Shown piece after piece: positions 4,228 through 42,247 of a DNA stretch of 64,000 nt. The translations under genes and the position numbers were made by a program. Origin of the DNA: an uncultured Phycisphaerales bacterium (GTDB lineage Bacteria; Planctomycetota; B15-G4; CAYZWU01). The notes beneath the pieces are model-generated. The model was given only the letters and a program-made list of their open reading frames with translations, was not told the origin of the DNA and did not search any database. The stretch covers positions 65,818-129,817 of the forward strand of contig CAZIUL010000009.1 in assembly GCA_964542475.1 (NCBI GenBank). Direction: 5' to 3'. Position 1 is the first letter of the stretch. Each line of letters begins with the position of its first letter.

Positions 4228-4950
4228 TCAGTTGCAGCACGTCCAGATTCCGGTATCGATTGCCGGGTTCGGGCTGCCGCTGATGGACAGGTTGTCGGAC
4301 ATTAGTCCGGCACCGCCGTTTTCATAAGCAGCCAGTCCGGCGGGAACAGCGGTCAAGCTGGTGTACTGCTGGATCTGGTTGCTCGTCTGCAGCACGTCAC
4401 CGCGATGGTTGCTCATGAACGCCCTGTTACCGCTGTTGCCGCGCGATATCGGCCATGCGTAGCATGCCCAGAAGTCCTCCGACGGGTCGCAGCCGCCTGG
4501 AACCGCAGCCCACCCTTGAGCAGCGCCGCCGTCTCCACCGTTCGGTTGCTCCGGATAAGGGAGACAGGCGCTATCGGGAATGTACATCAGGAAGTAGTAA
4601 CCCGACTTGTTCACGTAGCCGTTTCCATCGACAATACCCAGCGAGGATGAAAGTACGGCAGGGCTCAGCAGCACAGCGGGTGAGGCTGCGTCGCACCTGA
4701 TGGTAACCGTACCCGCCATTTCAGCGAAATAGCCGTACTCACCGATGCCGTCCATGTCCACGTCGATCGCCACCTGGGAATGAACCTGTGATTGTGCGGA
4801 AATCACGTTCCTCAGGGTTGCAATCGCTGCGGATTCGTTGGTGTTCAACCGCGCTGACAGAAGGTTGGGAATGGCAATGGATGCAATAATCGCGATGATC
4901 GCCACAACAATCATCAACTCAATCAAAGTAAAACCCCTATTCTTCCTCAC
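4228..4950 (-). CDS. Type IV pilin / pseudopilin with prepilin-type N-terminal methylation motif (240 aa, unusually large; C-terminal CC pair)
   Basis: N-terminus (V/M)RKNRGFTLIELMIVVAIIAIIASIAIP is the class III signal with a G-F cleavage site and Glu+5. GTG start with AAGGAGAG SD 7 nt upstream. A prepilin peptidase is encoded nearby. Confidence 0.8.
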   Translation of the reverse strand: MRKNRGFTLIELMIVVAIIAIIASIAIPNLLSARLNTNESAAIATLRNVISAQSQVHSQVAIDVDMDGIGEYGYFAEMAGTVTIRCDAASPAVLLSPAVLSSSLGIVDGNGYVNKSGYYFLMYIPDSACLPYPEQPNGGDGGAAQGWAAVPGGCDPSEDFWACYAWPISRGNSGNRAFMSNHRGDVLQTSNQIQQYTSLTAVPAGLAAYENGGAGLMSDNLSISGSPNPAIDTGIWTCCN

Positions 4951-5044: not shown

Positions 5045-5707
5045 TCACATCCATTTCTTTTCCAAAAACCTCAGTTCGTACCCGCTTCTGTAGCTGAGGA
5101 TACGCTCGTACAGTTTTTGGAATGTAGTCTGGTCATCGAACAGATCTTCCCAATTAACTTGAAACGCCGGACCAAAGACCCCTGTTTCCAAGGCTATATC
5201 CATGTTTTCCTCAAAACACCTATCGTCATCGAGCATGAGTGAACTTAAGGCAATAATTAATCTTGATGCGACGTTTTCACCAAAAAACTCGAGATTAAGC
5301 CGAGCATAGCGTCTTGCATCGAAATATCGGCTGGTCTTCAGCGCAAGCCTGCTTATTGTATCGAGAAGAGCTCTTTCGATCTCAGGATGCCCCCCGGCCA
5401 GCGGAAAAGCCTTTTCGTAAGCTGCAAGAGCCTCGCCTGCATTGCCGGATTCGCTCCGGATATAAGCCTTCATCAGAATAGCGTAGAGGTTCTCAGGATC
5501 ACGCCTGAGGATCTCCTCGATGTTTTTTTCGGCAGCACCGATCTTCTTGATGGTCATGTTGATGGCAAGCGAAGCCTCGAGATCCCCAAGGCTCATCTGA
5601 GGCGCGGGTTCATAGACAAAACCAGCCATAAGAATGGTGACACAAACAGCTGCGCCCGCTGTGTAGAGTACAAATCGGCCCCAGAATCCGTTTCTTTTAT
5701 CATCCAT
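5045..5707 (-). CDS. Membrane-anchored TPR-like protein (possible T4P accessory)
   Basis: The ORF as given overlaps the pilC 3' end, so the likely start is the internal ATG (MDDKRNGFW) at 5707. One TM helix (FVLYTAGAAVCVTILMAGFV) followed by an alpha-helical TPR-like region (AYEKA...). Same strand and tight spacing with pilC. Confidence 0.45.
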   Translation of the reverse strand: MDDKRNGFWGRFVLYTAGAAVCVTILMAGFVYEPAPQMSLGDLEASLAINMTIKKIGAAEKNIEEILRRDPENLYAILMKAYIRSESGNAGEALAAYEKAFPLAGGHPEIERALLDTISRLALKTSRYFDARRYARLNLEFFGENVASRLIIALSSLMLDDDRCFEENMDIALETGVFGPAFQVNWEDLFDDQTTFQKLYERILSYRSGYELRFLEKKWM

Positions 5708-5720
5708 GACGCATTTATCC

Positions 5721-6953
5721 TCAACCGCCTTTCGAGAGAGTTTCCTGCAGCTTGAATATGGGCAGGAACACGGCAAGCACGATTCCACCCACTATGAATC
5801 CCATGACTCCGATCATCAATGGCTCGATCAACGATGTCAGGCTTTTCACCTGGGCGGATACCTGCTCGTCGTAAAAGCAGGAGATCTTCTCGAGCAGTTC
5901 CTCCAGCGAGCCGGACTTTTCACCGATGCTGATCATGCGCGTTACCATGGGCGGAAAAACCCAGCTCTTCGAAAGCGGATCCGACAGCGTGTTTCCGTTT
6001 CTCACGCTCTCCTTCGCCTCGGATACGGCATCGAATATGATGCTGTTTCCTGATGTGGCAGCCACTATGTCGAGCGAGCCCAGTATCGGAACTCCGCTTT
6101 TGATCAGGGTTGAGAACGTTCTGCTGAAACGGGAAAGGGCAACCTTCCTGAAGAGAGGGCCAAAGACCGGAGACTTGAGAAACAGCCAGTCCAGCATGCG
6201 CGATCCTCTCTTTGTCCGTTTGAAAGCACCAAGCACAAAAAACACGGCAAGCGCGCCACCGCAATAGATATACCAGTTGTCCTTCAGGGTTTCCGATACG
6301 TTGAGCACTCCCTGTGTAATTCCCGGCAGCTCGATATCAAGGTTCTCGAAAACGGGTTTGAACGAAGGCACAACCCCGATCATCAAGAACATCGTGATCC
6401 CTAGGATAAGGACAAGCGAAACAACCGGGTAGGTCATTGCCGACTTGATCTCCCGCTTCAACCTGGCAGCGGCTTCGAGATACTCGGCCAGGCGCACCAG
6501 GATCTCGTCGAGCTGACCCGAAACTTCGCCGGCGCGAACCATGTTCACGTAGATGTTCGAGAAACAGTTCGGAAAGTTGCTCAAGGCCTTGGACAGGTCG
6601 CTGCCTGTACGGATATCCTCCGCAACACGCTCAAGAACATTCGAAAAACGCGGATTCTCCGTCTGGCCCACAAGGATATCCAGGGCATCCATGAGCGTGA
6701 TCCCGGCTGTGATCATTGTCGAAAGCTGCCGGGTAAAAACAACGAGCTCGTCCTTTCTCGGTTTTCCGGGCTTCTTGCTGGTTCTTCTTTTCGAACCCAG
6801 TTGCCCGCCCTTCGTGGAAGCCTTGGAAATGTTCATGGCCATCAGGTTCTTTTTTCGAAGTTCGCCGATAACATCGGACTCGCCTGTGGCATCAATCACT
6901 CCCTTGACCGTGTTCCCTTCGGGATTCTTCGCAATGTACTTGTAACTGGCCAT
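5721..6953 (-). CDS. pilC: Type IV pilus assembly platform protein PilC (GspF family)
   Basis: 410 aa. Duplicated GspF domains, three TM segments, canonical PilC N-terminus (YKYIAKNPEGNTVKGVIDA). 4 nt downstream of pilB. Confidence 0.9.
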   Translation of the reverse strand: MASYKYIAKNPEGNTVKGVIDATGESDVIGELRKKNLMAMNISKASTKGGQLGSKRRTSKKPGKPRKDELVVFTRQLSTMITAGITLMDALDILVGQTENPRFSNVLERVAEDIRTGSDLSKALSNFPNCFSNIYVNMVRAGEVSGQLDEILVRLAEYLEAAARLKREIKSAMTYPVVSLVLILGITMFLMIGVVPSFKPVFENLDIELPGITQGVLNVSETLKDNWYIYCGGALAVFFVLGAFKRTKRGSRMLDWLFLKSPVFGPLFRKVALSRFSRTFSTLIKSGVPILGSLDIVAATSGNSIIFDAVSEAKESVRNGNTLSDPLSKSWVFPPMVTRMISIGEKSGSLEELLEKISCFYDEQVSAQVKSLTSLIEPLMIGVMGFIVGGIVLAVFLPIFKLQETLSKGG

Positions 6954-6956
6954 GCA

Positions 6957-8726
6957 TTACTCCTTTTGAGCCGGTATCACATTCCCGTCATGACTGTTGG
7001 CAGCCATTTCATCCTCGGCAGGCACTTCATCCCCCATGGTCACCCTGAGAACCTCTTCCATCGATGTTTTGCCGCGCATGACATTGAGCATTCCGCAGCG
7101 CCTCAAGGTCATCATGCCGTCCTTGAGTGCGGCCTGCTTGATATCGATGGCGGATTTACCGTCGATAACCAGCCGCTTGACCCGTTCTGTAACCGGCAGC
7201 GTTTCCAGCAGTGCGAAGCGGCCCTTGTACCCCCCGTTGCACCGGTTGCAGCCCACGGCCCTGTAAACAGTCCCCTCTTCTGCCTCTTCTTCCGTCAAAC
7301 CGTTGGATATCAGCCGCTCGGCGGGCACATCAATCCGCTCCTTACACGAGGAGCACAATACCCTTGCCAGCCGCTGAGCAGCCACGAGGAGCACAGAAGA
7401 TGCGACCATGAACGGATCAAGACCCATGTCTATCATTCGTGTAATGGTTGAGGCCGCGTCGTTGGTGTGCAGAGTGGAAAGCACGAGGTGGCCGGTCAAA
7501 GCCGCCTTTACGGCTATCTCCACTGTTTCCGAGTCGCGGATCTCGCCGACCAGGATCACATCCGGATCCTGACGCAGTATTGAACGCAGCGCTCCGGCAA
7601 AGGTCATGCCCCGCTTGGCATTGACAGGCACCTGATTGATGCCTTCGAGCTGGTACTCGACCGGGTCTTCAACCGTAACGAGGTTTATCTCCGGGTTCCA
7701 TATCTCCTTTACCGCCGAATAAAGCGTTGTGGATTTCCCGGATCCCGTGGGTCCGGTGATCAGTATCATGCCGTACGGCTGCTTTATGGAATATCTGTAG
7801 TTGTCCAGGGCCTTCTTCTCGAACCCGAGGTTTTCGAGGTTCAAGGTAAGATTGGAAACGTCCAGAAGCCTTAGTACAACCTTTTCTCCATGCACGACAG
7901 GAAGTATCGATACCCGAAAATCAACCTGACGATTCTCGACCTTCACCTGAAACTTACCGTCCTGCGGTCTCCGCTTTTCAGCAATATCCAGGGAAGCCAT
8001 GATCTTGAGCCGCGAGACGATCGAATTCTGCATCGCTCTCGGAGGGCTCATGACCTCTTTCAAAACACCATCCTGGCGGTAGCGCACAACTATCTTCTTC
8101 TCGAACGGCTCGATGTGTATGTCGGACGCACGGTCACGGATGGCGTTTGCCACTATCAGATTCACAATACGGACTACAGGAGAGCCTTTCTCGGAGATAT
8201 CGAGATCCAGCTCATCGCCCTTCTCATGCTCCTCGTTTATCTCGACATCCACATTATTGATGTTGTCGAGAATGCTGGCCATCCTCTCCTCGTCATCACT
8301 GAAAGCCTTTTTTATGATCTCGTTGATCGACCTTTCCGAGGCGACAACAGGGCGCAGCTCGCAGCGGGTCAGGATGCAGATGTTGTCCATTTTGAGAATG
8401 TCGAACGGATTCGCCACAGCGAGGGTCAGGAAGTTGCCTATCTTCGCTACCGGAAAAACCACGTACTCCTCAGCCATCTTCTGTGGAATGAGGTTGAGAA
8501 GGCTGTCGTCCGCTGATAGACGCTCCGTGTCGATCGGCGGGAAGCCGCTCTCGCTGGCCAGGATCCCTATCAGCTCCTTTTCTTCGATCTTCCCGGCATC
8601 AACGAGGGCCGAGGCAAGGGACTTTTCCTGGCCCTGTGCGGTTTCCAATGCTTCGGAAATCACATCTTCTGAAAGGCTGGCTCCTTTGATCAGAACCGAG
8701 CGTACTTTGTTGTTGAAAGTGGACAT
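6957..8726 (-). CDS. pilB: Type IV pilus assembly ATPase PilB (GspE family)
   Basis: N-terminal GspE_N-type domain. Walker A ITGPTGSGKSTTLYS, Asp box, His box. C-terminal tetra-Cys zinc motif CSSCK...CNRCNGGYKGRFA. Confidence 0.9.
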   Translation of the reverse strand: MSTFNNKVRSVLIKGASLSEDVISEALETAQGQEKSLASALVDAGKIEEKELIGILASESGFPPIDTERLSADDSLLNLIPQKMAEEYVVFPVAKIGNFLTLAVANPFDILKMDNICILTRCELRPVVASERSINEIIKKAFSDDEERMASILDNINNVDVEINEEHEKGDELDLDISEKGSPVVRIVNLIVANAIRDRASDIHIEPFEKKIVVRYRQDGVLKEVMSPPRAMQNSIVSRLKIMASLDIAEKRRPQDGKFQVKVENRQVDFRVSILPVVHGEKVVLRLLDVSNLTLNLENLGFEKKALDNYRYSIKQPYGMILITGPTGSGKSTTLYSAVKEIWNPEINLVTVEDPVEYQLEGINQVPVNAKRGMTFAGALRSILRQDPDVILVGEIRDSETVEIAVKAALTGHLVLSTLHTNDAASTITRMIDMGLDPFMVASSVLLVAAQRLARVLCSSCKERIDVPAERLISNGLTEEEAEEGTVYRAVGCNRCNGGYKGRFALLETLPVTERVKRLVIDGKSAIDIKQAALKDGMMTLRRCGMLNVMRGKTSMEEVLRVTMGDEVPAEDEMAANSHDGNVIPAQKE

Positions 8727-8764: not shown

Positions 8765-9829
8765 TTAATGATGCGTCAACATCCGTTCCAGCTCATCGGT
8801 TTCCGTTGTATGTGACATGGCATCTTCGTATGTAATCTGGTTGCTGTTGTACAAGTTCGCCAAAGACTGATTCATCGTTACCATTCCAAACCTGTGGTTG
8901 GTCTGGATTATGCTGTATATTTGGTGGGCCTTGTCGTCACGAATAAGCGCCTTGACAGCAGGATTGGTCAGCAGGACCTCTGCTGACAGAATTCTTCCCT
9001 TGGCATTGGCCGCGGGCAGAAGCTGCTGACAAAATACTCCTGCCAGCGTAAAGGAAAGCATTGTCCTTATTTGCTGTTGCTGGTAATCAGGGAACACATC
9101 CACGATCCGGTTGATTGTCTGAACGGCATCTGAAGTATGAAGCGTTGCCAGGGTCAGGTGCCCTGTTTCCGACAGTGTCAAAGCCGCTTCGATTGTTTCG
9201 AGATCGCGCATCTCGCCGACCATGACAACATCGGGATCCTGCCTAAGCACCGAACGCAGCGCCTTCTTGAAGGCATGCGTGTCCGAGCCCACTTCCCTCT
9301 GGGTTATCAGCGCGTTCTTGTTCTGGTGCAAAAACTCGATCGGGTCCTCGATGGTCACTATGTGACAGCGCCTTTTCGCGTTGATCTGATCCAACATGGC
9401 AGCCAGCGTCGTGGACTTACCGGAACCTGTCGCCCCGGTAACGAGAATGAGGCCTTTTGGGAGGTTGCACAGGTTTTCGCAAACCTTGCGCGGCAGCCCA
9501 AGGTCATCGAAGTTATCGATCCTGTACGGTATGACCCGCAAAACCGCTCCGACGGCACCGCGCTGCACAAAAACGTTCGTTCTGAAACGGCCGAGCCGCT
9601 GCAGCCCGAAGGAAAAATCCAGTTCCAGCTCCTTTTCGAACTTTGCGATCTGATCGGAGGTCAATATCGAATAGATAATCGACTTCGTGTTCTCCGGCAT
9701 CAGAACATCGTACTCCGTGTTCTGAAGCACTCCGTTGATTCTCAGCTTTGGTGGTGACCCGGCAGCAATATGAAGATCCGATCCTCCCCTTTGAGTCAAC
9801 ACTTCAATCAGCTCTTGCATACTCAACAT
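8765..9829 (-). CDS. pilT: Twitching-motility (retraction) ATPase PilT
   Basis: 354 aa. Walker A VTGATGSGKSTTLAAM. PilT-type AIRxLIRE-like segment ALIRDDKAHQIYSIIQT. Immediately upstream of pilB. Confidence 0.85.
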   Translation of the reverse strand: MLSMQELIEVLTQRGGSDLHIAAGSPPKLRINGVLQNTEYDVLMPENTKSIIYSILTSDQIAKFEKELELDFSFGLQRLGRFRTNVFVQRGAVGAVLRVIPYRIDNFDDLGLPRKVCENLCNLPKGLILVTGATGSGKSTTLAAMLDQINAKRRCHIVTIEDPIEFLHQNKNALITQREVGSDTHAFKKALRSVLRQDPDVVMVGEMRDLETIEAALTLSETGHLTLATLHTSDAVQTINRIVDVFPDYQQQQIRTMLSFTLAGVFCQQLLPAANAKGRILSAEVLLTNPAVKALIRDDKAHQIYSIIQTNHRFGMVTMNQSLANLYNSNQITYEDAMSHTTETDELERMLTHH

Positions 9830-10103
9830 GTTGAACTCCCCAATCCCATTCTCTACAGAACAAATTCCCGCATTTCACGGAAACATGCGATGACTTCCAC
9901 AAAAGAAGATTTATAGAATATATCGAGATTCTTCGAGCCCAAGTTGAGAGGAATGATTTCCAGTATTACTAAAGTTCGGCAGGAATTGGGGTTGGCATTC
10001 GGGATCGGGGTCGGGAAGGGCACGTCAAGGGGTGCACACGCGGGCGCGCCCCTGCGCGATCAACGTAATATTGACATTATTCGTGTTGGGGCACAGGGAG
10101 CGG

Positions 10104-12146
10104 TCAACCCTCATCTTCTTCTTTGTTATACTTGGCGATGATTGCTTCTGCAATCTTGGATGGGACCAGATCGTAGTGGGAAAACTCTATGGTATAGGAC
10201 CCCTCACCGGCTGTGATTGACCTCAGATCCGTTGAATATGTCTGAATTTCCTGAAGCGGCACCGTAGCCTTGATGATCTGAATGTCGCCGATGGAATCCA
10301 TTCCTTGAATCCTTCCCCTTCGTCCGTTCACGTCAGAGGTGATGTCCCCCATGAACTTCCCGGGAATCGAGACTTCAATATTGGCGATCGGCTCAAGCAA
10401 AACAGGCCGCGCCTTCATAAACGCGTCCTTGAAAGCTTTTGTGGCAGCAACCTTGAAAGAAGCCTCTGATGAGTCAACGTCGTGGTAGGAACCGTCTACC
10501 AATCTCGCCTTGACATCGACCACTGTATAACCCGCAATCACCCCGGCATCGAGCACTTCCCTTATCCCCTTCTCGACCGCTGGTATGTACTGCCTGGGTA
10601 TAACGCCGCCGACGATCTCGTCGGAAAAAACGAAACCCTCTCCTCTCTCAACGGGTTCAAGGATCAGCTCAACTTCACCGTACTGGCCGTGACCGCCCGT
10701 CTGTTTCTTGTGCTTGTGATGCCCCCCTGATGTCCCCTGTATTGTTTCTTTAAGAGGAATCTTCGGCAGCTTCGTCTCAACTTCCACCTTGTAGCGCGAC
10801 TTCATCCTCTTGATGATGTTTTCCAGGTGAAGCATACTTATCCCAAGAATGATCATTTCAGCGGTCTGGGGATCCCGCTTGGCTTCGAATGTAGAGTCCT
10901 CGGTGTTCAATTTTTTCAGGGCTGTACCGAGTTTTTGTTCGTCATTCCGGCTTTTGGGAGAAACCGCAAGAGAAACCATCGGCGCAGGCATGTCCATGGC
11001 CGGCACAACGACATTACTCTTTTCATCGGTTACCGTGTCGGAGTTCTCCAACGTTTCAATCTTCGAAAATACCAGTATGTCACCCGCCACAGTCTGCTCT
11101 TGAACAGGCTCGAGCTCCTTTCCCTGGGGGCGGAAGACGTTACCGATCTTCTCGTTTTTCTCGGTCCGTGGATTGTATATGATCAGGCCGGGACTGATGG
11201 ATCCGGTGTACATCCTGATGTAGTTCATCTTGCCCACATAAGGATCTGTCACCGATTTGAATACGAAACCAACCGGGTCATCGCTTTCCCTGGGATCAAG
11301 GCGGATTTCTTCGTCTCCCTTGGAAGCGGAGCGAAAAGGTCCATCCAATGGGGAAGGAGCGTATTCAGCCAGGAACTCCATCGCTTCCGCTACTCCAAGA
11401 TCCTTTTCCACGGCCGTGCAAAGCACGGGCACCAGGCTCTTGTTGTTGATGGCAATCCTTAGCAGTTTTTTCAGATCCGCCGGTTCGATGGTTTCGCCCT
11501 CGAGATATCTCTCCATCAGCTCTTCGTCGTTTTCGACCAGCGCTTCAATGAGATCCAACCTTGTTTGTTCGACCCGATCCTTCATGGAGTCGGGCGCTTT
11601 TTCTGGAGCGTTGAGGCAATCGACCAGGGTGGAAACCTTGCCCCCGGTCGTATCCGGAATAAAGACAGGATAAATGTTGCTGCCGAAGAACTCCCTGAGG
11701 TTCCCTATGAGCCCGTCCCAATCAACGTTTTCCATGTCGACCTTGTTGATGATGATCACCTTGGCAAGGTCCAGCTTACCGGCTTCCTCCCACAGCTTGC
11801 GTGTATTGTATAAGATACCGTTGAAAGCATTGATATTGACCAACGCTGTTTCAGCGGCATAAAGCGATGATATGGCTTCACCGATGAAATCGGGGTATCC
11901 GGGTGTATCCAACAGGTTGATTTCGTGCTCGTTGTGGTTCAGGTGCATGATTGACAGGTTGATCGAATGTTTCTTGTCCTTTTCTTCAGGATCGTAATCC
12001 GAAACGGACGTGTTGTCATCGATCTTGCCGAGCCTGGTCACAGCCCCTCCCTTGAAAAGAAGCGCATCGACCAGAGAGGTTTTCCCTGAGTCCGCCCCAC
12101 CGATAAAGGCTATGTTTCTTATAGCTTTTGCCTCATAGTCAGCCAT
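10104..12146 (-). CDS. Elongation factor G-like GTPase (EF-G paralogue, divergent P-loop)
   Basis: 680 aa. Five-domain EF-G architecture (G domain, then domains II to V). G1 motif GGADSGKTS instead of the canonical AHVDAGKTT. DTPGYPDF (G3) and NKVD (G4) present. Confidence 0.75.
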   Translation of the reverse strand: MADYEAKAIRNIAFIGGADSGKTSLVDALLFKGGAVTRLGKIDDNTSVSDYDPEEKDKKHSINLSIMHLNHNEHEINLLDTPGYPDFIGEAISSLYAAETALVNINAFNGILYNTRKLWEEAGKLDLAKVIIINKVDMENVDWDGLIGNLREFFGSNIYPVFIPDTTGGKVSTLVDCLNAPEKAPDSMKDRVEQTRLDLIEALVENDEELMERYLEGETIEPADLKKLLRIAINNKSLVPVLCTAVEKDLGVAEAMEFLAEYAPSPLDGPFRSASKGDEEIRLDPRESDDPVGFVFKSVTDPYVGKMNYIRMYTGSISPGLIIYNPRTEKNEKIGNVFRPQGKELEPVQEQTVAGDILVFSKIETLENSDTVTDEKSNVVVPAMDMPAPMVSLAVSPKSRNDEQKLGTALKKLNTEDSTFEAKRDPQTAEMIILGISMLHLENIIKRMKSRYKVEVETKLPKIPLKETIQGTSGGHHKHKKQTGGHGQYGEVELILEPVERGEGFVFSDEIVGGVIPRQYIPAVEKGIREVLDAGVIAGYTVVDVKARLVDGSYHDVDSSEASFKVAATKAFKDAFMKARPVLLEPIANIEVSIPGKFMGDITSDVNGRRGRIQGMDSIGDIQIIKATVPLQEIQTYSTDLRSITAGEGSYTIEFSHYDLVPSKIAEAIIAKYNKEEDEG

Positions 12147-12330
12147 GGATATCTCCCTGCTTTGTTTTTAAGCGTGAGCATAAGCCTGATCATGGTAAAG
12201 CCAAATGCCATGACAGGATATACATTGATCCGGTCCACAAGCTATGTATCACTCGTGGTTATTTACAAAAACGATCTATACTAATTCCAGATCCTGTATA
12301 AATCAAGCTCCGGTTTTAACATTTCACATC

Positions 12331-12510
12331 TAACCCGCTTATTTCATACTCTTCGTCGCGAGGTGCCGTAAACTGTGTTGTGGCAAGGCGCATGTCAGGA
12401 GACGACCGCAGGCCTGTTCCTACAGGTTGAGGATCGTCTCCTGGCATGAAACGCAGCCACGGCGCAGGTTACTGTGCCGCAGCAGAAGAGGATGAAATAT
12501 GCGGGCTAAA
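12331..12510. repeat. Family-A MITE-like element, full-length copy (~180 bp) with ~40-bp terminal inverted repeats and an internal hairpin
   Basis: Left end taacccgcttatttcatactcttcgtcgcgaggtgccgtaaactg. Right end is the reverse complement of cccgcatatttcatcctcttctgctgcggcacagtaa. Internal inverted repeat caggagacga/tcgtctcctg. The same ends recur at 6 other loci. Confidence 0.75.
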
Positions 12511-12587
12511 CGGTTTCTACGCAAGAACCGCATCGGGGGATAACGCTTGGGTCATTATTTAAACTTCGAACCATTCATGTAACCCCC

Positions 12588-13469
12588 TTATCTCCATAGG
12601 GATGAAGCAAATCGCGGCCATTCCTCCAAGAGCTCGATGATCTCCGCCCTGAAGAATATAACGGTCACGACCCCCAATGAAAGGAAAGGCCCAAACGGGA
12701 CCTCATGCTTTCCGGTGATTAGCCTGTACGGCACGCCAACTATGCTGCCTGCCGCACAGCCCGCGACAAATACCATCAAAACACCTTCCCATCCGAACAT
12801 ACCACCCACAAAAGCCATGAACTTGACATCTCCCATGCCAAGGGCCTCCTTTTTCAGCGCGGCCTTTCCGATCCACCCAACGGCAAGGAGGGTTCCCCCG
12901 CCTACCAGAGCGCCGCCAAGCGAGGAGATGAGGCCCGCAAGATGGGCGTTTAAAGCCTCGATGAAAAGGCTGCTGTTCTCCTGCAAGCCCGGCAGGAGCG
13001 CGCATGCCAACGGTGCTGCCACAATCCCGGAATAGGTAATCTCATCCGGAATGATCTTGAAATCCAGGTCGATGAAAGTAACCACCAGCACGGTTGCTAG
13101 CATGTACATCTGGATGATGTAGATTCCTAAAAGTTGAAGACGTTCGGACCCGCTGTTGATGATGTCGGGTGCATGGCCGATGGTCAGGCACACGAATAGT
13201 ATTGATGTGAGGGCTTCGACCAAAGGATATCGCCACGAAAGCAAGCCGCCGCAAAAACGGCATCGGCCGCGCAAGCGGACGAACGATACCACTGGTATGT
13301 TGTCATACCATGGTATCGATTTTCCGCAAGCCGGGCAAAACGACCTCATTGGGCGTGTTACTGTAAGGGATTCCCTTGGAAGCCGGTAGATGAGAACATT
13401 GAGAAAGCTGCCGACCATGGCCCCAAAAACGCCCGCGACAACCGAAAACAAACAGATCGGAAAGCTCAT
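12588..13469 (-). CDS. pilD: Prepilin peptidase / N-methyltransferase PilD (A24 family)
   Basis: N-terminal tetra-Cys zinc motif (CPACGKSI...CRFCGG). Multi-TM body with the catalytic Asp region (GMGDVKFMAFVGG). 293 aa. Confidence 0.9.
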   Translation of the reverse strand: MSFPICLFSVVAGVFGAMVGSFLNVLIYRLPRESLTVTRPMRSFCPACGKSIPWYDNIPVVSFVRLRGRCRFCGGLLSWRYPLVEALTSILFVCLTIGHAPDIINSGSERLQLLGIYIIQMYMLATVLVVTFIDLDFKIIPDEITYSGIVAAPLACALLPGLQENSSLFIEALNAHLAGLISSLGGALVGGGTLLAVGWIGKAALKKEALGMGDVKFMAFVGGMFGWEGVLMVFVAGCAAGSIVGVPYRLITGKHEVPFGPFLSLGVVTVIFFRAEIIELLEEWPRFASSLWR

Positions 13470-13503: not shown

Positions 13504-14367
13504 TCATTGGCAGTCGCAATTGATCCATATATGACTGAACGTGTTTTCTATCCTATTCCCGCCAAAATCGGTAAAGCCCAGAAGATCCCTCCAAAGCTCG
13601 TAGCGGCGCCCTTTCAGAAAACCCCCTGACGGCTTCACATCAACAAACGAACTGCCGGTCCCTGCTGTGCTGATCGAACAGACAAGGTCCAATCCGCCAA
13701 AGTCATTGTCAACCTCTCCGCTCCCGCCTTTTGGCTCTTCACCAATTTTAACTACCTCATTCGAAACACGCATACCCGCTCTTTGGCCCAGCACGGAACC
13801 GGGAAACAAGGGCTCTGAAAACTTCAGCCGTAAAAGCGACCCCGGAGTCACATCAAGGCCGCGAATGTTTATTTCTTGCACAGGCTTGCTGTTCACCGCC
13901 ACGAGCACCGGGGCTGATCCGGGATCACAATCAACAAAATGAGAAAGTCCTACAGGTTCGCCGGATACGGTACTGAAAGAAGATGAATAACAGCGGTCAA
14001 GGTGAAACCCCCCTGTTGATAAAACAGCAATATATGATGGAAACCCATTGAAGCAGACCTTGTATTCGCATCCTGGAAGGAGACCTGAGTCCGAGCAATC
14101 CTGTGCTTGCGGAAGAGCGGGGAAAAACCTGGCCTCGCTGCCGTTGACAATCCAGCGCCCCCGGGCTGCCTCTCCATCCGCGTTCAAAATCGACACCGTA
14201 TCCGGGTTGATTGATGACCTGTCGACTTCTTTGTTGAATTTGAAAACCAGCGCTTCGTTCAGACAAACACCGTTTTTCTCTTCCTGGATAAAACTCAAAA
14301 GTGAAAAGTCGGAAGCTCTTCCGCAGCCAATCATAATCAGGCACAAAAAACAGAGAGCTTTTTTCAT
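13504..14367 (-). CDS. Cys-rich predicted lipoprotein, function unknown
   Basis: Likely start at internal ATG giving MKKALCFLCLIMIGCG (lipobox LIMIGC). Rest soluble with about 10 Cys. Co-directional between pilD and the giant lipoprotein genes. Confidence 0.5.
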   Translation of the reverse strand: MKKALCFLCLIMIGCGRASDFSLLSFIQEEKNGVCLNEALVFKFNKEVDRSSINPDTVSILNADGEAARGRWIVNGSEARFFPALPQAQDCSDSGLLPGCEYKVCFNGFPSYIAVLSTGGFHLDRCYSSSFSTVSGEPVGLSHFVDCDPGSAPVLVAVNSKPVQEINIRGLDVTPGSLLRLKFSEPLFPGSVLGQRAGMRVSNEVVKIGEEPKGGSGEVDNDFGGLDLVCSISTAGTGSSFVDVKPSGGFLKGRRYELWRDLLGFTDFGGNRIENTFSHIWINCDCQ

Positions 14368-14476
14368 GAACAGGGCCCGTATCAAATCGTCATCACGAAG
14401 CAGGGGGACAGGTTTTGATTTGTAACGTATCAAAACCCGTCCCCCTGCATTTTAAATCATGTCGGCAGTGCTGTCG

Positions 14477-17400
14477 CTAATACTTAAACCTCATCCGCAC
14501 GTAGTCGATTTGTGGTTTTTTGCTTTCCGGACTCAGGGTGCCAATCCAAGCTGAATCGAGCCTGATACGAAAACGGATGAACTGCTTCCCGGATAACTCG
14601 GTCAGGTCGTGTGTCCATGTGTCTTCGTTAACAACAGCTGGGTCTTCGTTCGCAACCTTTGATCCCGGGATCAGCGCATCGGTTCCCTGGAACTGAAAAG
14701 CCACATGGTTGTCCTCCGGGATATAGTCGATTTGGGCCACCTTACTATCCGGGGCTTCAACCTTGAAGTCGTTGGAGTCCTCATCATCGGGAGGAGTTGC
14801 ACCGTTCAACACATAATGACCGATAGTATATGCCTCAGCCCACGACTGTCCGCCTATGGTGGTTTCCCTGACCCCCCTGAAACCGTCCAGCAAGTCAGGA
14901 AATGTACCCGGTTCCGGGTTTTCGAACCAGAAATACGGCGGGATTTCATCGTTGATAGGGTTCCTGTCGATAATACGCCCCATGTCGATCCACTTGGACA
15001 CTGCATACGTATGCGAGCTTATGGTGGACTTGGTCTTATACGGATCCACAAGGCATTCAGTGGTTCTGGGAAACTCACCATAGTAGTTCTTGGGAGTGCC
15101 CTTGACCCGGACCTCAAAACGGGAATAGTAGACTTGCTGGCCTGCATTATAATGCTTCATCTTGTCAGGCTCCCATTGGATCTTGCAGATGTCGCATTCA
15201 ACCGATGTCCATTCTTTCGGCTCTCCATCAGGCCACCCCACCATGACCAGGTCGTTCTCCGGATCAGGCACCATAAGTTGAATGAGGCCGTATCCTCCAT
15301 ACCCGCCGTCTCCGCGTGACCAGGAACAAAAAGCCGAATAATTCAGGAGCCCGTTGCCTGGTTGGATTTTGCATGGCTCCAGGATTCCAACATAACCCAC
15401 TCCAGTGGTTTCCTTGGCGTCATCTCCCCAACCCCCAGCCACATTGAGACAACCGTTTTCTTCGATTGTGATGGTCTTTGCGGAGTTCAGGATGATGGCT
15501 CCTCCGCTGCCACCTCCCGCACCGCCTCCGAAACTGGAATGGCCGATCACTTCACCGCCCCCTCCTCGCCCGCCCATAGCATATATACAGCCGGTGCTCT
15601 CTATGCTGATTCCCTCCAGGCTGTGGATTGCGATGGAGCCGCTGCCGCCGCCGCCGCCGCCGCCCTTGGAATCGTAACAGCTTGCAGCCTTGGGAGGATT
15701 TTGCGCCGCGCCCTGACCCTTTGTAACCGGGCGCATGCTGTCCAGCCGTGAACCACCGCCACCCCCGCCCTGTCCGCCGATAAGCTCTTTCACCTCGCCG
15801 TATTCACCGATGAAATCGTTGTCCTCATCTCCATCCTTGAAAACCAAGTTTCCAATATCCCCGGGATGAGGTGCATGATCAATGTGCTCATCACCGGTGT
15901 TTCCGAACTCGTTTATCTTCGTCTGTTCATCAAGAGGATCGCCTTCATGCCATGTAGGATCGTATTCGTAAGATCCATCCCACCACTCCCAGACGTCCCT
16001 GATATAAAACTCCCCATCTTCATCCACACCATACTGCCCCTTCCCAGGATATCCTATATGTCCTTCCTGGTAAAAGGAGCCTCCTCCGCCGCCTGCGCCG
16101 CGGCTGTCAGGATCATTTTTCGAACCCTGCCAGGGAACAAACTTGTCCTTTGCGCCGCTCTCACCCCCAAAACCTCCTGTCTGCTTGATGTTGCCTGGAC
16201 CATAGCCTCTCTCGCCGGTCGGCACGGATTGAAGGTCTGTCAGGTTCTTGAAATTCGGGGGGATGGGAGGCTGACCCATGCCGCCGCGGCCGCCGCCGGG
16301 TCCCGGGGGGCCGCCAGGCGTCGGCATGAACGCAGAATTGAAAGTGGTGTCATTTGTTCCATTCTGCCCGGAAACGTCGATCGTGCCCCCTATCGTCACT
16401 TCTCCTGTAGCCGTAAAAACCAATGGTTTTGATCCCATGGCCATCACAGTCACACCGTACGGTATATTGATCTCCCTGAAATGGAACTCACCGGTCTTGA
16501 TAATAACAGGTTTTGTTATGTCAGGAGTTGCACCGTTGTTCAGAGGCAGCGGCTGGTAATCAGTATCCAGCATCACGATCGATGCCACACCAACCACGGG
16601 GCGGAAATCTCCGAGTTCCCCGCTACCGCTGAGACCGAGCCCGGCAAGAAGGTGCTTGTACTCAGGAGGTTGGCCATCCAAATCCTGAACGTTCCAGATA
16701 GCTCTGGCGTTGGCGAGCTCGTGCTTAGTCTGTTCCATCTCGTTATCGAGGAACTCTTCCATGAAGAAGTCTTCGATAACCGCATCACCTGGACCGGGAT
16801 CATAGGTTTCGAAGCTTCCAACGAATTCGGCACCGTACGGATCGAAGCCATAGTTTTCGTGCATGCTTCCACCGCTCAGGTTCTTCAATGAAAAACGCAC
16901 CATCATCTCGATGCGCTTTCCTATCGGGAGAATTCCGGAAGGTTCGAGCTTGACCGTAGCCCCGTGATATGAGTTGTTCAAAAGAGTAACCGTTCCACCC
17001 AGCTCGTAATGCCTGAGCGCGAAGTCTACCCTTCTATCGGAGGTCAGCTGTGCATCGTCGATCGCATGGGTTTCCTTCACAGACCCGGTTTGCAGGTCCA
17101 GATGGACCACCTCCATAGCGTTGGCCTCATAAAGAACCATTGTGTCGATATGAAAAAAATCCAAGCTGCAGTAATCGCCTGAAAGGCCGGACACCACGGT
17201 CTCACAGGTCAGGTTGGAGTTGATCTTTTCGATGGATGAGATGGCGTTCGGCGTGCCGGGATCATATACCCTAAGGCCGTAAAGAGCACCGTCCCTGCCC
17301 ATGGTCAGATCCACGAAGTCTCCAAGGCCGGCTACCAATGTTCCGAGCACGACCACAGCTCCGGTGTCCACGTCGATTTCCAAAAGGGAAGTTCCAAGGT

Positions 17401-18575
17401 CGTTCAAACCATAAAGCTTGCGCTGCAGCTCGGTATCCAGACGGATACAGATCGAACTTGCCTTGACTCCCAAAGGGCTGAATAACCTTTCGTTGGACAG
17501 CTCGCAGATCGTAAACGGCGGAGTGCCTGAAATATTCTCGAAGTCCGCGTCATAAAGGGCGGTCTCTGAGCAGACCAGCATCATGTGCTGTTTCGTTGCC
17601 ACAATCGACTTGACACCTACCTTGGTCATGTTGAAAAACGTATACCCCAGAAACTCGAACTCATCCGAGCCTGCTTCCATCATCGCAAGATATCCAAGCT
17701 CGGAGAATGTCTCGTCAACAGCCGTGTACATGACTGAATCATCGTATGCGAGAAATATGTTCTCCTCACTGACGGTATCCCCATCAAGGTCCGAGCCCTG
17801 GATGTTATCGCTGTCAAAATCAAGGGGCTGATCGAACTGAATCTCGATGTCCCTTGGCGCGGGAAAACCCTGCAACTCGCCTGAAACACTGTTGATGGGG
17901 AAATCCACGGTGCCGTCCACAGGATCGGTGGTCACCACTCCGGGTGGCAGGACCGGCTGGTTCTTGAAGAAAAAAGCAGGCATTTCTTCGGGCCAGGTTG
18001 TAAACTCGATCGGAAAATCCACACCTGGATCAATGGCAACCAGATCTTCGATACTCCCCGATGTTCCGGTCGGTACAAAAACGGTGTATGTATAACCCGG
18101 CAGAAGACCCGGGACGTTTTGGGCCACCGCATTTATCGAAAGATCGATCTCCCCCGTGGGTATATAGGGAGTAAAAACAACTACGTTGTCCATGATCTCG
18201 TATGTGCCCCTGGCAACGATTAGGTTCTTTGTCCCATCGAGAGCAACATCCGGGCCCTGATAATCCAAGCCGGGGTTGGCATTGATGAGAATGTTCCCTG
18301 AATGGACATCACCCGCTACCGGATCGGAAAAGGTGAACAGGACCTGCTGGCTCAACGGCACATTCGCAGGAGGTGTTTTCGTAGCTCCTGACAAGTCGGT
18401 GTATTCGGGAAAGGTTATGGATGTCAGCGTCTGGCCTTTGTATCCGGCCCCTCCATGTCCGCCGCCGCCGCCACCGCCGCCGCCGCCGCAGCTCGACAGG
18501 GCAAACGTAAACAGGAACGAGCAAAACAAAACCACTGAAAACCGAGCAGGATGAAATGCCTTAAACCGTTTCATG
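14477..18575 (-). CDS. Giant predicted surface lipoprotein, paralogue B (~1365 aa) with poly-Gly tether and internal Gly-rich / beta-helix-like repeats
   Basis: Likely start MKRFKAFHPARFSVVLFCSFLFTFALSSCGGGGGGGGGGHGG (AAGGA SD upstream). The track ORF begins 17 codons earlier at a GTG/TTG-type start. Internal tracts GGQGGGGGGS, KGGGGGGGSGS, GGRGGGGE, and the motif GGAIILNSAKTITIEENGCLNVAGG. Collagen-like PGGPPGPGGGRGG. Confidence 0.7.
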
Positions 18576-18667
18576 GTTCCAATTCCTTTATATTGAAAAC
18601 CGAGCCATACAATAAAAACTCGCATTTCCTGTACAAAAACTACGGCATCAGCTTCCAGATGCCATTG

Positions 18668-21600: not shown

Positions 21601-21952
21601 GCTTCTTCACTTGGTTAAGCGGCATGCCAGGATCGAAAAGCGATTTGGGGTAACCGCTCACCAGGAGTCCGGTGATGGGGTCCGTCTCGATAATGGTTTC
21701 CGGGCTGACCACTTCAGCAACATTCCCCGCAGGATCAAGCAGTGACCTTCCGAAATATATCTCTTCCAGATAAAATTCGCTATCCCCTTGTTGCCCACCG
21801 GGATTGGAAGAACCACCTCCTCCACCCCCGCCGCCCCCGCCGCCCCCGCCGCCGCATCCCCCAAGAACCACGGCGACGACAAGAAAAGAACCAAAGCATA
21901 CCTTACCGAATCTAACTGCTGTGGACCCACTCATGTAACTTACCCTCAGCAA
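18668..21952 (-). CDS. Giant predicted surface lipoprotein, paralogue C (~1090 aa) with poly-Gly tether
   Basis: N-terminus ...MSGSTAVRFGKVCFGSFLVVAVVLGGCGGGGGGGGGGGGGGSSNPGG (ATG at 21934 with GAGG upstream, or TTG at 21952). Long Asp/Gly/Pro-rich body. 42 bp downstream of paralogue B. Confidence 0.7.
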   Translation of the reverse strand: MLRVSYMSGSTAVRFGKVCFGSFLVVAVVLGGCGGGGGGGGGGGGGGSSNPGGQQGDSEFYLEEIYFGRSLLDPAGNVAEVVSPETIIETDPITGLLVSGYPKSLFDPGMPLNQVKKLDLGSFGLTDLPNSSFKVPIIPRNSVLILDFSKELDSKCLNLDGNGFLTAQSPVQIRTDIDNLISVEAVLFGDRLVLNPVVEGAVGFPASPLIFDQAGNPIASQDGYLRIRIYSEGTGNNVLQSATGTSLSAREDLLGTPGKPVGFNPGNTYLDFINFGDISFNGFLPDLTPPRIIREVRYPSDQDEEGSVGNGSGLTAIVDPDMGPIWDPQNPENSFNDEANGGDGEWAGALLTLRQNTATEEKVRVDHNTPDTLYIVGQFNVPPDPGIPGVQDPDEYHLQRAEFFEPIPGTGDPLAAVDPDNYPKDDDDLEDAKNSDLFNFVIWEEWNENDEIWEEVDYDPGSSGTNSVDSNWRLSFRFSEAMDPGSFRPYETFYVCKGSVNIEDPGFDYMKVGRTAARKSNSILSFEPIVDDQFGLTGEQLVGFGGQPKSLRMTIRTVPPDQVLNDFYDSFGDDLPEGVEEDLEKIGVLGVMSLGGQALGLPAYFFDKGSKWCVAYSDSTGYGAFPPAVDFKYEFNIQAAPDPESRPENGVLVHRFMGLPETGTVGNPPISGGIFYDHQVDGQGDPMVYGPHIADIALGLNGFLSGHSVEFIEHIFDEWNPPPPSSPHYPDPLFALPFGTGTPVNSSYGSRFQHTYRRGDCSPDILAYEDTVLDLIGLSWAPIGGWITNSVIEKMSILISLTNIVPLSNDDNCDGIPDHPQSGLVQNFNQNRQPYVHTVVLGKNNDGVPYSMDWHNLYAPKNAGSQNFFYYVPWPEFDKPVGNPGFEYDSNQSMLIEYRTDPNTKASASISNGFTYHAAILSSALPRFRVYTRGDDPTSPNSVIGLVYGCTQPGKYPNAQGPLTNFTGKYGDNSRYFMIFDYVKRKSTIVSPYLGTDIQGGYDMQFINPIILPDLENIPEGTGLDLSFQTTANPYIPGSQSGWVQPGEVMGFNVNMAYKNYNYIRFKALFTANVDAGVVPSIDSIVIPYLIVED

Positions 21953-23701: not shown

Positions 23702-23796
23702 CTTTTCACGAAAAGTAGATAAAAGTGTGCTGCTGTACCGCACGGGTATAGACGGTCTTCAAGAGGCCGGTGCCAAATAACACCACCACGTCCGAA

Positions 23797-41331: not shown

Positions 41332-41344
41332 GATCAGCCCAGCC

Positions 41345-41941
41345 CTACAGTTTCATCGCTATTCTGTCAGCGAGCGCGTCCGACAGCATGGCCTGGTTTG
41401 CGTATTCGATCTTAGATCCCGTGGCAATGCCGCGCGCTATCCTTGTGATCATTATTCCGGTTCCTTCCAGTTTCCTGGCCAGCAAAAGGGCGGTTCCATC
41501 TCCCTCGAAATCCGGATTTGTTGCAATAATGATCTCCTTCGCCTCACCTTCATTGGCTCGATTCAGAAGAGCCTCCAACGTCAGGTGCTCCGGCAACACA
41601 CCCTCAATCGGATCCAGCGCCCCTTGCAAAACGTGATACAGCCCCCTCCAGCCGGCATCCTCCAGGGCGGTTAAATCGCCCAGCCCTTCAACAACAAGGA
41701 TCCTCTCCCTGTCCCGGTCAGGGGACCGGCAGATGGGACAAGGATCGTCTTCCGAGGTATTGAAACAGATGGAGCAGGACCTGCTTTTTTCCGCAACCAT
41801 CCGAACGGCATCGGCAAGCGCAAGAGCATTGAGCTTGCCGCTCCTCAGAAGGAAAAGCGTCATCCGCTCCGCTGTTTTCTCTCCTATTCCAGGGAGCTTT
41901 TTGAACTCCCCTATCAAACTGTCAATACACTCGGGATACAT
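41345..41941 (-). CDS. recR: Recombination protein RecR
   Basis: HhH motif LPGIGEKTAERM. C4 zinc finger CSICFNTSEDDPCPIC. Toprim domain. 198 aa. Confidence 0.95.
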   Translation of the reverse strand: MYPECIDSLIGEFKKLPGIGEKTAERMTLFLLRSGKLNALALADAVRMVAEKSRSCSICFNTSEDDPCPICRSPDRDRERILVVEGLGDLTALEDAGWRGLYHVLQGALDPIEGVLPEHLTLEALLNRANEGEAKEIIIATNPDFEGDGTALLLARKLEGTGIMITRIARGIATGSKIEYANQAMLSDALADRIAMKL

Positions 41942-42236: not shown

Positions 42237-42247
42237 TCGAACCTCCG

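Follow-up and report, generated by a model that had tools for sequence, protein, structure and literature searches.

EF-G2 (EFG II) is a widespread subfamily of translational GTPases whose cellular role has been settled in few organisms, as a factor for translation under starvation in Bacteroides and as one with a role in stress in mycobacteria. In a 2011 survey, the genes of this subfamily always occurred alongside another EF-G, and every EF-G present as a single copy belonged to EFG I (PMC3150367). EFG II proteins carry Gly16 and Leu25 in the P-loop, at positions where EFG I has Ala and Thr, and Thr291, Gly333, and Lys or Arg at 352 in domain II, according to the numbering of 1WDT (PMC3150367, including its Table 1). 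The nine EFG II sub-subgroups listed at that time did not include Planctomycetes; spdEFG1 and spdEFG2 were reported from these bacteria, the former defined by a three-residue KDG insertion in switch I (PMC3150367).

The characterized members of the subfamily differ in their activities. Carbon starvation induces fusA2/EF-G2 of Bacteroides thetaiotaomicron, an alternative elongation factor (PMC10994844). The EF-G2 of Mycobacterium smegmatis reportedly has a ribosome-dependent GTPase activity that is minimal, takes no part in recycling, and has a role specific to stress, and in M. smegmatis EF-G1 the H88Y substitution leaves almost no GTPase activity (bioRxiv 10.64898/2026.05.25.727771). For Thermus thermophilus EF-G2, in which the catalytic position is likewise Tyr, both GTPase and translocation activity are reported to be retained (bioRxiv 10.64898/2026.05.25.727771), so that the characterized EF-G2 proteins disagree.

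The window, by which we mean the whole 64-kb stretch of DNA that was analyzed, derives from a Planctomycetota MAG related to Brocadiia and contains a real, intact gene of this type (Table 1). The reading frame starts at an ATG with GGGAG 7 nt upstream, and Pfam assigns its 680-aa product the modules GTP_EFTU (residues 7 to 265), EF-G_D2 (293 to 374), EFG_III (386 to 459), EFG_IV (461 to 579), and EFG_C (582 to 667). The AlphaFold2 model (pLDDT, 88.8; pTM, 0.81) matches full-length EF-G and EF-G2 structures with TM scores of 0.85 to 0.90, and the superposed structure with the highest sequence identity is T. thermophilus EF-G2 (38%). These results agree with a preliminary description of the locus, which had called a full-length, five-domain EF-G-like GTPase. 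Pfam and the model together show the five-domain architecture with the G' insertion that characterizes EFG II, and the G' region and the tip loops of domain IV are conserved. Judged by the mean column identity of 64% over 24 homologs, the full-length gene is under clear purifying selection.

Table 1. Features of the EF-G2 gene and the surrounding pil genes (positions in the window)
Feature	Position	Strand	Basis or remark
EFG II (EF-G2-type) translational GTPase gene	10104..12146	-	680 aa, five domains
P-loop/G1 GGADSGKTSL, EFG II-type Gly16 and Leu25	12072..12101	-	Translation; Margus 2011 Table 1
G2/switch I DKKHSIN, Ser61 for Thr of RGITI	11958..11978	-	Alignment; EFG II G2 consensus xxxSx
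Tyr84 codon in DTPGY, position of the catalytic His of EF-G (DTPGH)	11895..11897	-	Alignments
Domain IV loop 1 HHKHKKQTGGHGQYGEV, EFG II-type KK	10671..10721	-	Translation; homolog comparison
Domain IV loop 2 DGSYHDVDSS, conserved with canonical EF-G	10467..10496	-	Alignment, translation
Three ORFs (309, 1382, 1094 aa), no significant Pfam domain	13504..21952	-	Syntenic upstream of pilD in relatives
Prepilin peptidase, PilD-like (A24_N_bact and Peptidase_A24)	12588..13469	-	Pfam
Spacer between pilD and EF-G2 gene, 441 bp	12147..12587	-	Sequence not conserved among relatives
Spacer between EF-G2 gene and pilT, 274 bp	9830..10103	-	Stable hairpin after stop codon, no U tract
PilT retraction ATPase	8765..9829	-	TIGR01420 471 bits (cut-off 319)
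PilB-type assembly ATPase (MshEN and T2SSE)	6957..8726	-	Profile matches
PilC platform protein (T2SSF, two copies)	5721..6953	-	Profile matches
Small protein, weak TPR-like matches, syntenic after pilC	5045..5788	-	Gene callers: 220-aa product
Type IV pilin, N-terminal methylation motif	4228..4950	-	Pfam

On sequence grounds, the protein is a member of the published EFG II/EF-G2 subfamily and not a canonical fusA product. It scored 706 bits against NF009891 (cut-off, 597) and 566 bits against TIGR00484, the model of canonical EF-G, which is below the cut-off of 659.4. A canonical EF-G used as a control (the second copy at L035) gave the opposite pattern, with 1,019 bits against TIGR00484 and an NF009891 score below the cut-off. 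The match to NF009381 (825 bits; cut-off, 583) was dropped as evidence for EFG II because canonical EF-G passes this model too, so it is not specific. In phmmer comparisons of the G domain, the EF-G2 proteins of M. smegmatis (9k0z, 118.9 bits), B. thetaiotaomicron (7uvp, 112.3 bits), and T. thermophilus (1wdt, 102.9 bits) scored high, with all canonical EF-G chains at or below 71.7 bits. A neighbor-joining tree, built with one outgroup and lacking references for spdEFG and Tet, placed the protein inside a Planctomycetota-type EFG II clade with 100% support, and support within the early-branching grade was low (25 to 73%) with this single outgroup. The earlier call of a divergent EF-G paralog distinct from housekeeping fusA is upheld by the TIGR00484 score and by the absence of AHxDAGKT, RGITI, and DxPGH, and the lack of an rpsL/rpsG/tuf context on which it drew is also apparent, the immediate neighbors being pil genes. 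The accompanying remark that the functions of EF-G paralogs are mostly unknown needs qualifying here: the paralog is not of an unknown kind, EFG II/EF-G2 being a published subfamily with solved structures and biochemistry.

Several other assignments were rejected. Canonical EF-G (fusA, EFG I) fails on the motifs GGADSGKT, KKHSI, and DTPGY and on the neighbors pilD and pilT. The proteins spdEFG1 and spdEFG2, which are related to mitochondrial EF-G1 and EF-G2 and occur in Spirochaetes, Planctomycetes, and delta-proteobacteria, share the domain plan; the KDG insertion of spdEFG1 is missing from the aligned switch I, mtEF-G1 and mtEF-G2 scored 315 and 210 bits as against 458 to 490 bits for EF-G or EF-G2, and mtEF-G2 keeps the catalytic His where the window protein has Tyr84. 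The tetracycline protection proteins Tet(M)/Tet(O) were dismissed on scores of 285 bits against NF012153 (cut-off, 775) and 200 bits against NF033148 (cut-off, 1,100), and the Bacteroidota EF-G2 on a partial match of 519.5 bits to NF058620 (cut-off, 1,000).

The letters GGADSGKTS reported earlier for the P-loop are those of the translated codons at 12072 to 12101, but the motif, which had been called degenerate, is not so: G16-x4-G21-K22-T23 is the Walker A consensus GxxxxGK[ST], in the form typical of EFG II. In G2, KKHSI aligns to RGITI, with Ser replacing the Mg-coordinating Thr, and the nucleotide-binding pocket has an NKVD motif. Domain II has Gly342 and Lys362, neither of which varies within the clade, and the Thr291 position of 1WDT, which is Thr in most EFG II, is occupied by Ser298, a conservative variant that was mapped via EF-G I alignments and not directly to 1WDT. 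In domain IV, H479-K480-K481-Q482 places Lys-Lys ahead of QTGGxGQYG, and 82 of 87 EFG II sequences have KK ahead of QTGGxGQ[YF].

The position of the catalytic His, mapped by alignment to Staphylococcus aureus EF-G and to the EF-G2 proteins of M. smegmatis, T. thermophilus, and B. thetaiotaomicron, is Tyr84. Among the 121 closest homologs in which the DxPG motif was found, the next residue is Tyr in 120 and Phe in 1; among 87 EFG II sequences across phyla, it is Tyr in 73 and Phe in 5. His occurs in neither set (0 of 121 and 0 of 87), and Tyr also occupies this position in the solved Thermus and Mycobacterium EF-G2 structures, indicating that Tyr84 is a family trait and that the missing catalytic His is no peculiarity of the window gene.

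The structural representative of EFG II, T. thermophilus EF-G-2 (PDB 1WDT), shares with the window protein the five domains, the Gly16/Leu25 P-loop, Ser in the G2 motif xxxSx, Gly and Lys at two domain II positions, KK before QTGGxGQYG, and Tyr after DxPG, at 38% identity and TM scores of 0.85 to 0.88. Like the window gene, EFG II genes lie outside the str operon, but no pilus neighborhood has previously been reported in the family. M. smegmatis EF-G2 (PDB 9K0Z/9K10), the best G-domain match, has DTPGY in common with the window protein and the P-loop GxxxxGKTTL, and differs in its overall sequence (~33% identity), its length of 709 aa with indels, and a genomic context unrelated to pili. B. 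thetaiotaomicron EF-G2/fusA2 (PDB 7UVP/8DMF; NF058620) has an EFG II-type G domain with Ser at the catalytic position, where the window protein has Tyr, and neither has the catalytic His; its group is Bacteroidota specific and does not include the window protein. Canonical EF-G (fusA, TIGR00484) has the same fold, highly similar domains III to V (490 bits for full-length S. aureus EF-G), and the same conserved G' region and domain IV loops, and differs in the catalytic residues of G1, G2, and G3 and in its rpsL-rpsG-fusA-tuf context.

Full length, purifying selection, and conserved domain IV loops would also be expected of a working housekeeping EF-G that had moved out of the str operon, no second EF-G was seen within the 64-kb window, and T. 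thermophilus EF-G2, despite its Tyr, is reportedly active in translocation. We nevertheless regard such a relocated fusA as highly improbable. The protein is below the TIGR00484 cut-off and lacks AHxDAGKT, RGITI, and the catalytic His; the 2011 survey paired every EFG II with another EF-G, found only EFG I as single copies, and reported spdEFG1 and spdEFG2 from Planctomycetes (PMC3150367); and in a Caldiserica locus EFG II adjoins a canonical EF-G.

If function is transferred from relatives at 33 to 38% identity, which differ among themselves, the window EF-G2 is most likely an alternative or stress factor that binds the ribosome and is a weak GTPase. By analogy with the characterized EF-G2 proteins, it would bind the ribosomal factor site and GTP and hydrolyze GTP poorly or not at all, and it may serve elongation or ribosome regulation in an alternative, slow, or stress-specific capacity, next to the housekeeping EF-G(s), reported for Planctomycetes as spdEFG1 and spdEFG2. 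The proper label is EF-G2-like, rather than elongation factor G.

The placement of the gene between pilD and pilT in a common orientation, as initially described, is correct, with all neighbors on the minus strand, and pilD is syntenic in 16 related loci (L004, L006, L008 to L010, L031, L050, L059, L091 to L093, L171 to L174, and L176). Folding of the 274-nt spacer gave a z-score of -2.7 for the hairpin 3' of the EF-G2 stop codon, and no conserved block emerged when the spacers of five relatives were aligned. No Rfam family was found near the EF-G2 gene, the whole window containing SRP RNA and two tRNAs. A scan of positions 8600 to 13600 for sigma-70 promoters and terminators gave counts not above those in shuffled sequence, and a sigma-54 promoter pattern had 22 matches (29.6 expected), none in the spacers. 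In the window genome, the long (441 and 274 bp), nonconserved spacers and the hairpin after the stop codon count against co-regulation.

Gene content at related loci was taken from tblastn and precomputed gene calls. Linkage to pil genes was found in 11 of 13 early-branching Planctomycetota loci and in 5 of 6 further Brocadiia-like loci (positive in L171 to L174 and L176), compared with 1 of 29 loci from the derived Planctomycetia/Phycisphaerae. As a control across phyla, a scan of genome contigs gave, among the matches listed, relatives at ≤45% identity to the window EF-G2; of 45 EFG II loci from other phyla, none has the linkage. The incidence is hence 11 of 13 in early-branching loci and 1 of 74 elsewhere. 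At PilT identities of ≤60%, none of 77 PilT loci has an adjacent EF-G2 gene, and their order is pilB-pilT-pilC, as elsewhere. Conservation of the linkage, for which the preliminary description had proposed a check, is therefore a property of the early-branching Planctomycetota, the linkage being nearly absent from the derived classes and absent from the other phyla listed.

Within this part of the phylum, the order pilD-EFG-pilT recurs in relatives with 75, 67, 52, 51, and 46% EF-G2 identity, and adjacency to pilD and/or pilT is retained to ~41 to 50% identity. Rearranged orders also keep the adjacency (with E for the EF-G2 gene and other single letters for pil genes, D-E-T-B-C, D-ompA-E-T-HEAT-B-C, D-E-T only, E-T-B, and, in L041, B-T-E). 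With pilD on one side and pilT on the other, EF-G2 is part of an old arrangement, pilD-(ompA-like)-EF-G2-pilT-pilB-pilC-pilin, that early-branching Planctomycetota have retained. The distance from the EF-G2 stop to the pilT start is 1 bp in L172 and L176 and ~11 bp in L011, a near-overlap that implies co-transcription in these loci, and EF-G2 is almost certainly co-transcribed with pilT in some early-branching lineages.

A canonical terminator lies between the EF-G2 gene and pilT in L006, and L093 has pilD-ompA-pilT-pilB-pilC-pilin without an EF-G2 gene, so the pil cluster can exist without it. Brocadiales/Scalindua retain pilD-ompA-hisH-(hisF)-EFG, which in L173 goes on with pilC-pilin; in Scalindua, the EF-G2 gene stays after pilT/pilB have left the neighborhood and adjoins nirS. 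The L006 terminator, the L093 cluster without the gene, the his insertions, and the mixing of the window pil genes with other housekeeping genes count against reading the linkage as co-regulation.

We consider it probable, at roughly 0.7, that the gene encodes an EFG II-type alternative or stress factor beside the housekeeping EF-G(s) and that its linkage to pil genes reflects shared regulation or inherited synteny. Such an account of the linkage would be the most economical, with direct mechanical involvement in the pilus not favored, and a slow-growing, attached state is a plausible common setting for a low-cost translation factor and pili.

Retention of pilD or pilT adjacency to ~41 to 50% identity despite rearrangements, the stop-to-start distances of 1 and ~11 bp, and the enrichment among early-branching loci would all suit an EF-G2 that has become integrated, as a working component, into the type IV pilus module of these bacteria, co-transcribed and translationally coupled with pilT. 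This stronger proposal is unlikely: the linkage is limited to a section of a single phylum, being absent from the other-phyla loci listed and from the PilT loci; L093 has the cluster without the gene and L006 a terminator before pilT; and the gene outlasts pilT/pilB in the Scalindua neighborhood, next to nirS. The window protein carries no additional domains that could bind pilus proteins and conserves all ribosome-contact features, and a literature search for EF-G with pil genes (pilT/pilD) in Planctomycetes found no relevant paper. It is similarly doubtful that such a factor might sustain or tune the translation of pilin and pilus proteins at low GTP or energy, or pass information on ribosome or nucleotide status to PilT/PilB. 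The restricted linkage, L093, and L006 likewise weaken the regulatory or translation-coupling role raised in the preliminary description.

At the other extreme, the linkage may be pure historical synteny, an ancestral arrangement not yet broken up, with no shared regulation or function. This is a tentative alternative, which fits the restriction of the linkage to one lineage and its loss in Planctomycetia/Phycisphaerae, the unrelated genes (hisH/hisF, OmpA-like, and HEAT) inserted in the slot, the spacers of the window, and the scattering of the window pil genes among housekeeping genes over ~33 kb. However, gene order seldom outlives 41 to 50% protein identity without operon-level selection, pilT adjacency survives the rearranged order in L041, and the near-overlapping stop and start codons in L172, L176, and L011 imply co-transcription there.

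The EF-G2 family being already described, the new point, which we offer as a lead, is that its position among pil genes is conserved across early-branching Planctomycetota. Computation offers few leads to function, of which a conserved neighborhood is one, and here it points, within one deep lineage that includes anammox bacteria, to the gene being co-expressed with the retraction ATPase of the pilus. If EF-G2 were indeed a working part of the pilus module, this long-enigmatic family would gain a concrete cellular partner; if the linkage is inherited synteny only, the result is an ordinary annotation refinement.

The genes inserted in the slot across related loci are hisH/hisF, in anammox lineages, and those for an OmpA-like and a HEAT protein. 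In the window itself, the pil genes lie on one strand, among unrelated housekeeping genes, and are interspersed with Obg, RNase E/G, and MnmE-like genes. The three ORFs upstream of pilD are possibly part of the pilus module.

Alongside the pil genes, the window encodes a GTPase with all of the EF-G domains (Pfam GTP_EFTU at residues 7 to 265, EF-G_D2, EFG_III, EFG_IV, and EFG_C), its start codon preceded at 7 nt by a Shine-Dalgarno-like GGGAG. The fold is intact in a confident AlphaFold2 model (pLDDT, 88.8; pTM, 0.81; input alignment of 24 homologues), which matches full-length EF-G and EF-G2 structures at TM scores of 0.85 to 0.90. These domains and the flanking gene calls bear out the preliminary description of a five-domain EF-G lying beside pil genes on the same strand, outside any str-operon context. 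The nearest homologues are from Planctomycetota metagenome-assembled genomes, and those about 49% identical bear the names Candidatus Scalindua or Brocadiales.

Features of the window discussed in the text
Feature	Position	Strand	Remarks
Pilin	4228..4950	-	Pfam
PilC	5721..6953	-	Pfam/NCBI models
PilB	6957..8726	-	Pfam/NCBI models
PilT	8765..9829	-	Pfam/NCBI models
EF-G2-type gene	10104..12146	-	ATG start, 680 aa
Prepilin peptidase (pilD)	12588..13469	-	Pfam
Three ORFs	13504..21952	-	309, 1382, 1094 aa
MnmE-like GTPase	22466..23743	-	between pilus genes
Second PilT/U-like ATPase	25919..27013	-	
Obg	27222..28217	-	between pilus genes
RNase E/G	29290..30846	-	between pilus genes
Secretin	31930..33780	-	
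PilO-like	33901..35343	-	
PilM	36087..37118	-	
rpoN to tRNA-Ser region	39868..44975	-	
Large bacterial SRP RNA	44340..44603	-	129 bits
PrkA-family kinase, DUF444 protein, SpoVR-like protein	46549..51290	-	684, 365, 508 aa
Large membrane protein	51500..54442	-	980 aa
Large membrane protein	58926..61589	+	887 aa

The protein fails the model for canonical EF-G (TIGR00484; 566 bits against a cutoff of 659.4) and passes NF009891 (706 bits against 597), the reverse of the pattern in a canonical EF-G control from a Caldiserica locus (TIGR00484, 1019 bits; NF009891 under its cutoff). Because the control also passes NF009381, that model was set aside as evidence for EFG II. These scores support the earlier view that the gene is unlikely to be the housekeeping fusA. 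That this is the organism's sole EF-G is highly improbable; in a 2011 survey, EFG II never occurred without another EF-G, and Planctomycetes had spdEFG1 and spdEFG2 (PMC3150367).

Among solved structures, the G domain is most similar to EF-G2 of M. smegmatis (118.9 bits), B. thetaiotaomicron (112.3 bits), and T. thermophilus (EF-G-2; 102.9 bits), as opposed to at most 71.7 bits for any canonical EF-G. The defining marks of EFG II are Gly16 and Leu25 of the P-loop, a G2 that has shrunk to xxxSx, residues at three sites of domain II, and a Lys-Lys pair conserved in loop 1 of domain IV (Margus et al. 2011, PMC3150367). In the window protein these appear as G16, L25, S61 (KKHSI where EF-G has RGITI), G342, K362, and K480-K481, but Ser298 stands where most EFG II have Thr. 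Its switch I lacks the KDG insertion and it is therefore not spdEFG1; the Tet-type and Bacteroidota EF-G2 models score far under their cutoffs, and mitochondrial EF-G1 and EF-G2 are far less similar to it than EF-G or EF-G2. On HMM scores, G-domain similarity, and diagnostic residues, the protein is classified as a member of EFG II/EF-G2. In the Caldiserica genome (L035), EFG II and canonical EF-G genes occur together (9178..11205 and 16019..18067, about 5 kb apart on one strand); the canonical copy has AHIDAGKT, RGITI, and DTPGH and served as both tree outgroup and HMM control.

The P-loop string GGADSGKTS had been read correctly but termed degenerate, which it is not: G16-x4-G21-K22-T23 conforms fully to Walker A and has the EFG II form. 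A more striking substitution, previously missed, lies in switch II (DTPGY), where Tyr84 aligns with the His of EF-G. In EF-G, the His of DTPGH activates GTP hydrolysis on the ribosome. The position following DxPG is Tyr or Phe in each of the 121 nearest homologues where the motif could be located; across EFG II from many phyla it is Tyr in 73 of 87, Phe in 5, and His in none, and it is Tyr again in the EF-G2 structures of Thermus and Mycobacterium. By these alignments, loss of the catalytic His is a family trait of EFG II. In M. smegmatis EF-G2, Y98 is directed away from the gamma-phosphate and ribosome-dependent GTPase activity is minimal, and an H88Y change nearly abolishes the GTPase activity of EF-G1; Thermus EF-G-2, also with Tyr, is reported to keep GTPase and translocation activity (bioRxiv 10.64898/2026.05.25.727771), so activity is not readable from Tyr84 alone.

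Ribosome binding and contact with the decoding center are probably kept, to judge from the conserved NKVD (G4), G' region, and tip loops of domain IV (KKQTGGHGQYG and SYHDVDSS). The protein would bind the ribosomal factor-binding site together with GTP and either serve as a translocase that is slow or needs no hydrolysis or regulate translation specifically under stress, and bulk translation would fall to the housekeeping EF-G(s). Such a role matches those described for mycobacterial EF-G2 and for Bacteroides EF-G2, which is induced under carbon starvation (PMC10994844).

Linkage to pilus genes, which the preliminary description proposed to check, is conserved within one part of the Planctomycetota and not beyond it. 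Exact-protein look-ups recovered pilD-(ompA)-EFG-pilT in relatives with 75, 67, 52, and 51% EF-G2 identity, followed in most by pilB-pilC-pilin. Two relatives at 48 to 49% (L172 and L176) share the order pilD-ompA-EFG-pilT-MshEN-pilB-pilC-pilS, in which the EF-G2 stop is separated from the pilT start by 1 bp. The Scalindua/Brocadiales order is pilD-ompA-hisH-(hisF)-EFG, followed in one case by GAF, response regulator, pilC, and two pilin genes and, in Scalindua, by nirS instead. Three Scalindua-type anammox loci (L010, L171, and L174) have a nirS-like cytochrome cd1 nitrite reductase and radical-SAM/SPASM genes downstream of EF-G2, with no pilT there. L172 (4810..6144), L176 (4607..5953), and L009 (6700..8031) encode, directly upstream of pilD, a TPR protein part of which resembles the C-terminal domain of RNA polymerase alpha, and all three have a PilS-like sensor kinase after pilC.

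A pattern-based scan covering one genome for each GTDB species yielded at least 80 EFG II loci, at 45% identity or lower and drawn from many phyla; pil genes adjoin EF-G2 in 5 of the 80 listed, all Planctomycetota, including one EF-G2-pilT-pilB order with an 11-bp gap and one rearranged pilB-pilT-EF-G2 order. In a bootstrapped neighbor-joining tree, Planctomycetota-type EFG II forms one clade (100% support), with pil-linked loci in its early-branching part (11 of 13 linked); linkage occurs in 1 of 29 members of a derived clade (90% support) of Gemmatales, Pirellulales, Phycisphaerae, and nested sequences labeled gamma-proteobacterial or Streptomycetaceae, and in 0 of 45 from other phyla among the matches listed. 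Nine such nested loci (L045, L046, L063, L065, L074, L077, L079, L082, and L087) fall with good support among Phycisphaerae-type sequences, reflecting either lateral transfer or mis-binned contigs; of all the sequences, these score best against NCBIfam NF009891.

When the window's PilT was used to search metagenome contigs, the order pilD-EFG-pilT-pilB-pilC-pilin recurred in two of the three closest loci (66 to 67% identity). In the third (L093, 6086..9152; PilT identity, 66%), a natural control, pilD is followed by an OmpA-like gene (6919..7785) and then by pilT-pilB-pilC-pilin, and EF-G2 is missing. None of 77 further PilT loci (identity of 60% or less, pilB-pilT-pilC order seen elsewhere) has EF-G2. 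The likeliest basis of the linkage is inherited synteny, whether or not regulation is shared; a direct pilus role is unlikely.

Co-transcription of EF-G2 and pilT appears to depend on lineage: it is likely where gaps are 1 to 11 bp and doubtful in other lineages, possibly including the window's own, given long spacers (here 441 bp to pilD and 274 bp to pilT), a stable hairpin just 3' of the EF-G2 stop codon (z-score, -2.7; no U tract), and, in the 67% relative (L006, about 12040..12250), a canonical intrinsic terminator, GGCCGG-ttat-GCCGGCC plus T9, between EF-G2 and pilT. Neither spacer holds a sequence block conserved across aligned relatives, and around the gene, promoter, terminator, and sigma-54 scans gave nothing above chance and an Rfam scan no RNA element.

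EF-G paralogues had been described as mostly of unknown function, but the literature already covers the family, its pattern of motifs, and the replacement of His by Tyr; in the NCBI pipeline, such proteins are called "elongation factor G." The Planctomycetota EFG II clade appears to be new, without a place among the sub-subgroups listed in 2011 (PMC3150367), and its long-conserved position in a pilD/pilT cluster was apparently undescribed, no paper on it being found within the searchable library. This context is a modestly interesting lead on EF-G2.

The window's pil genes are scattered over about 33 kb of one strand and intermingled with genes for Obg, RNase E/G, and an MnmE-like GTPase, a long co-directional block with no tight pilus operon. 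Between PilC and the pilin, the same strand encodes a small protein whose TPR-like matches are weak. The three ORFs directly upstream of pilD have no significant Pfam domain (a sub-threshold Big_5 match only), keep their synteny in three relatives (L004, L006, and L008), and may encode pilus-associated surface proteins. Further along, rpoN (sigma-54) and dnaX lie with the SRP RNA and two tRNA-Ser genes (GGA and CGA); the sigma-54 promoter consensus is not enriched anywhere in the 64-kb window. The adjacent PrkA, DUF444, and SpoVR-like genes are a conserved yeaG-yeaH-ycgB-type stress/starvation triad. For both large membrane proteins, similarity is limited to the C-terminal end of YfhO, and G+C content at 58 to 62 kb is 0.59 to 0.60, versus about 0.51 elsewhere.
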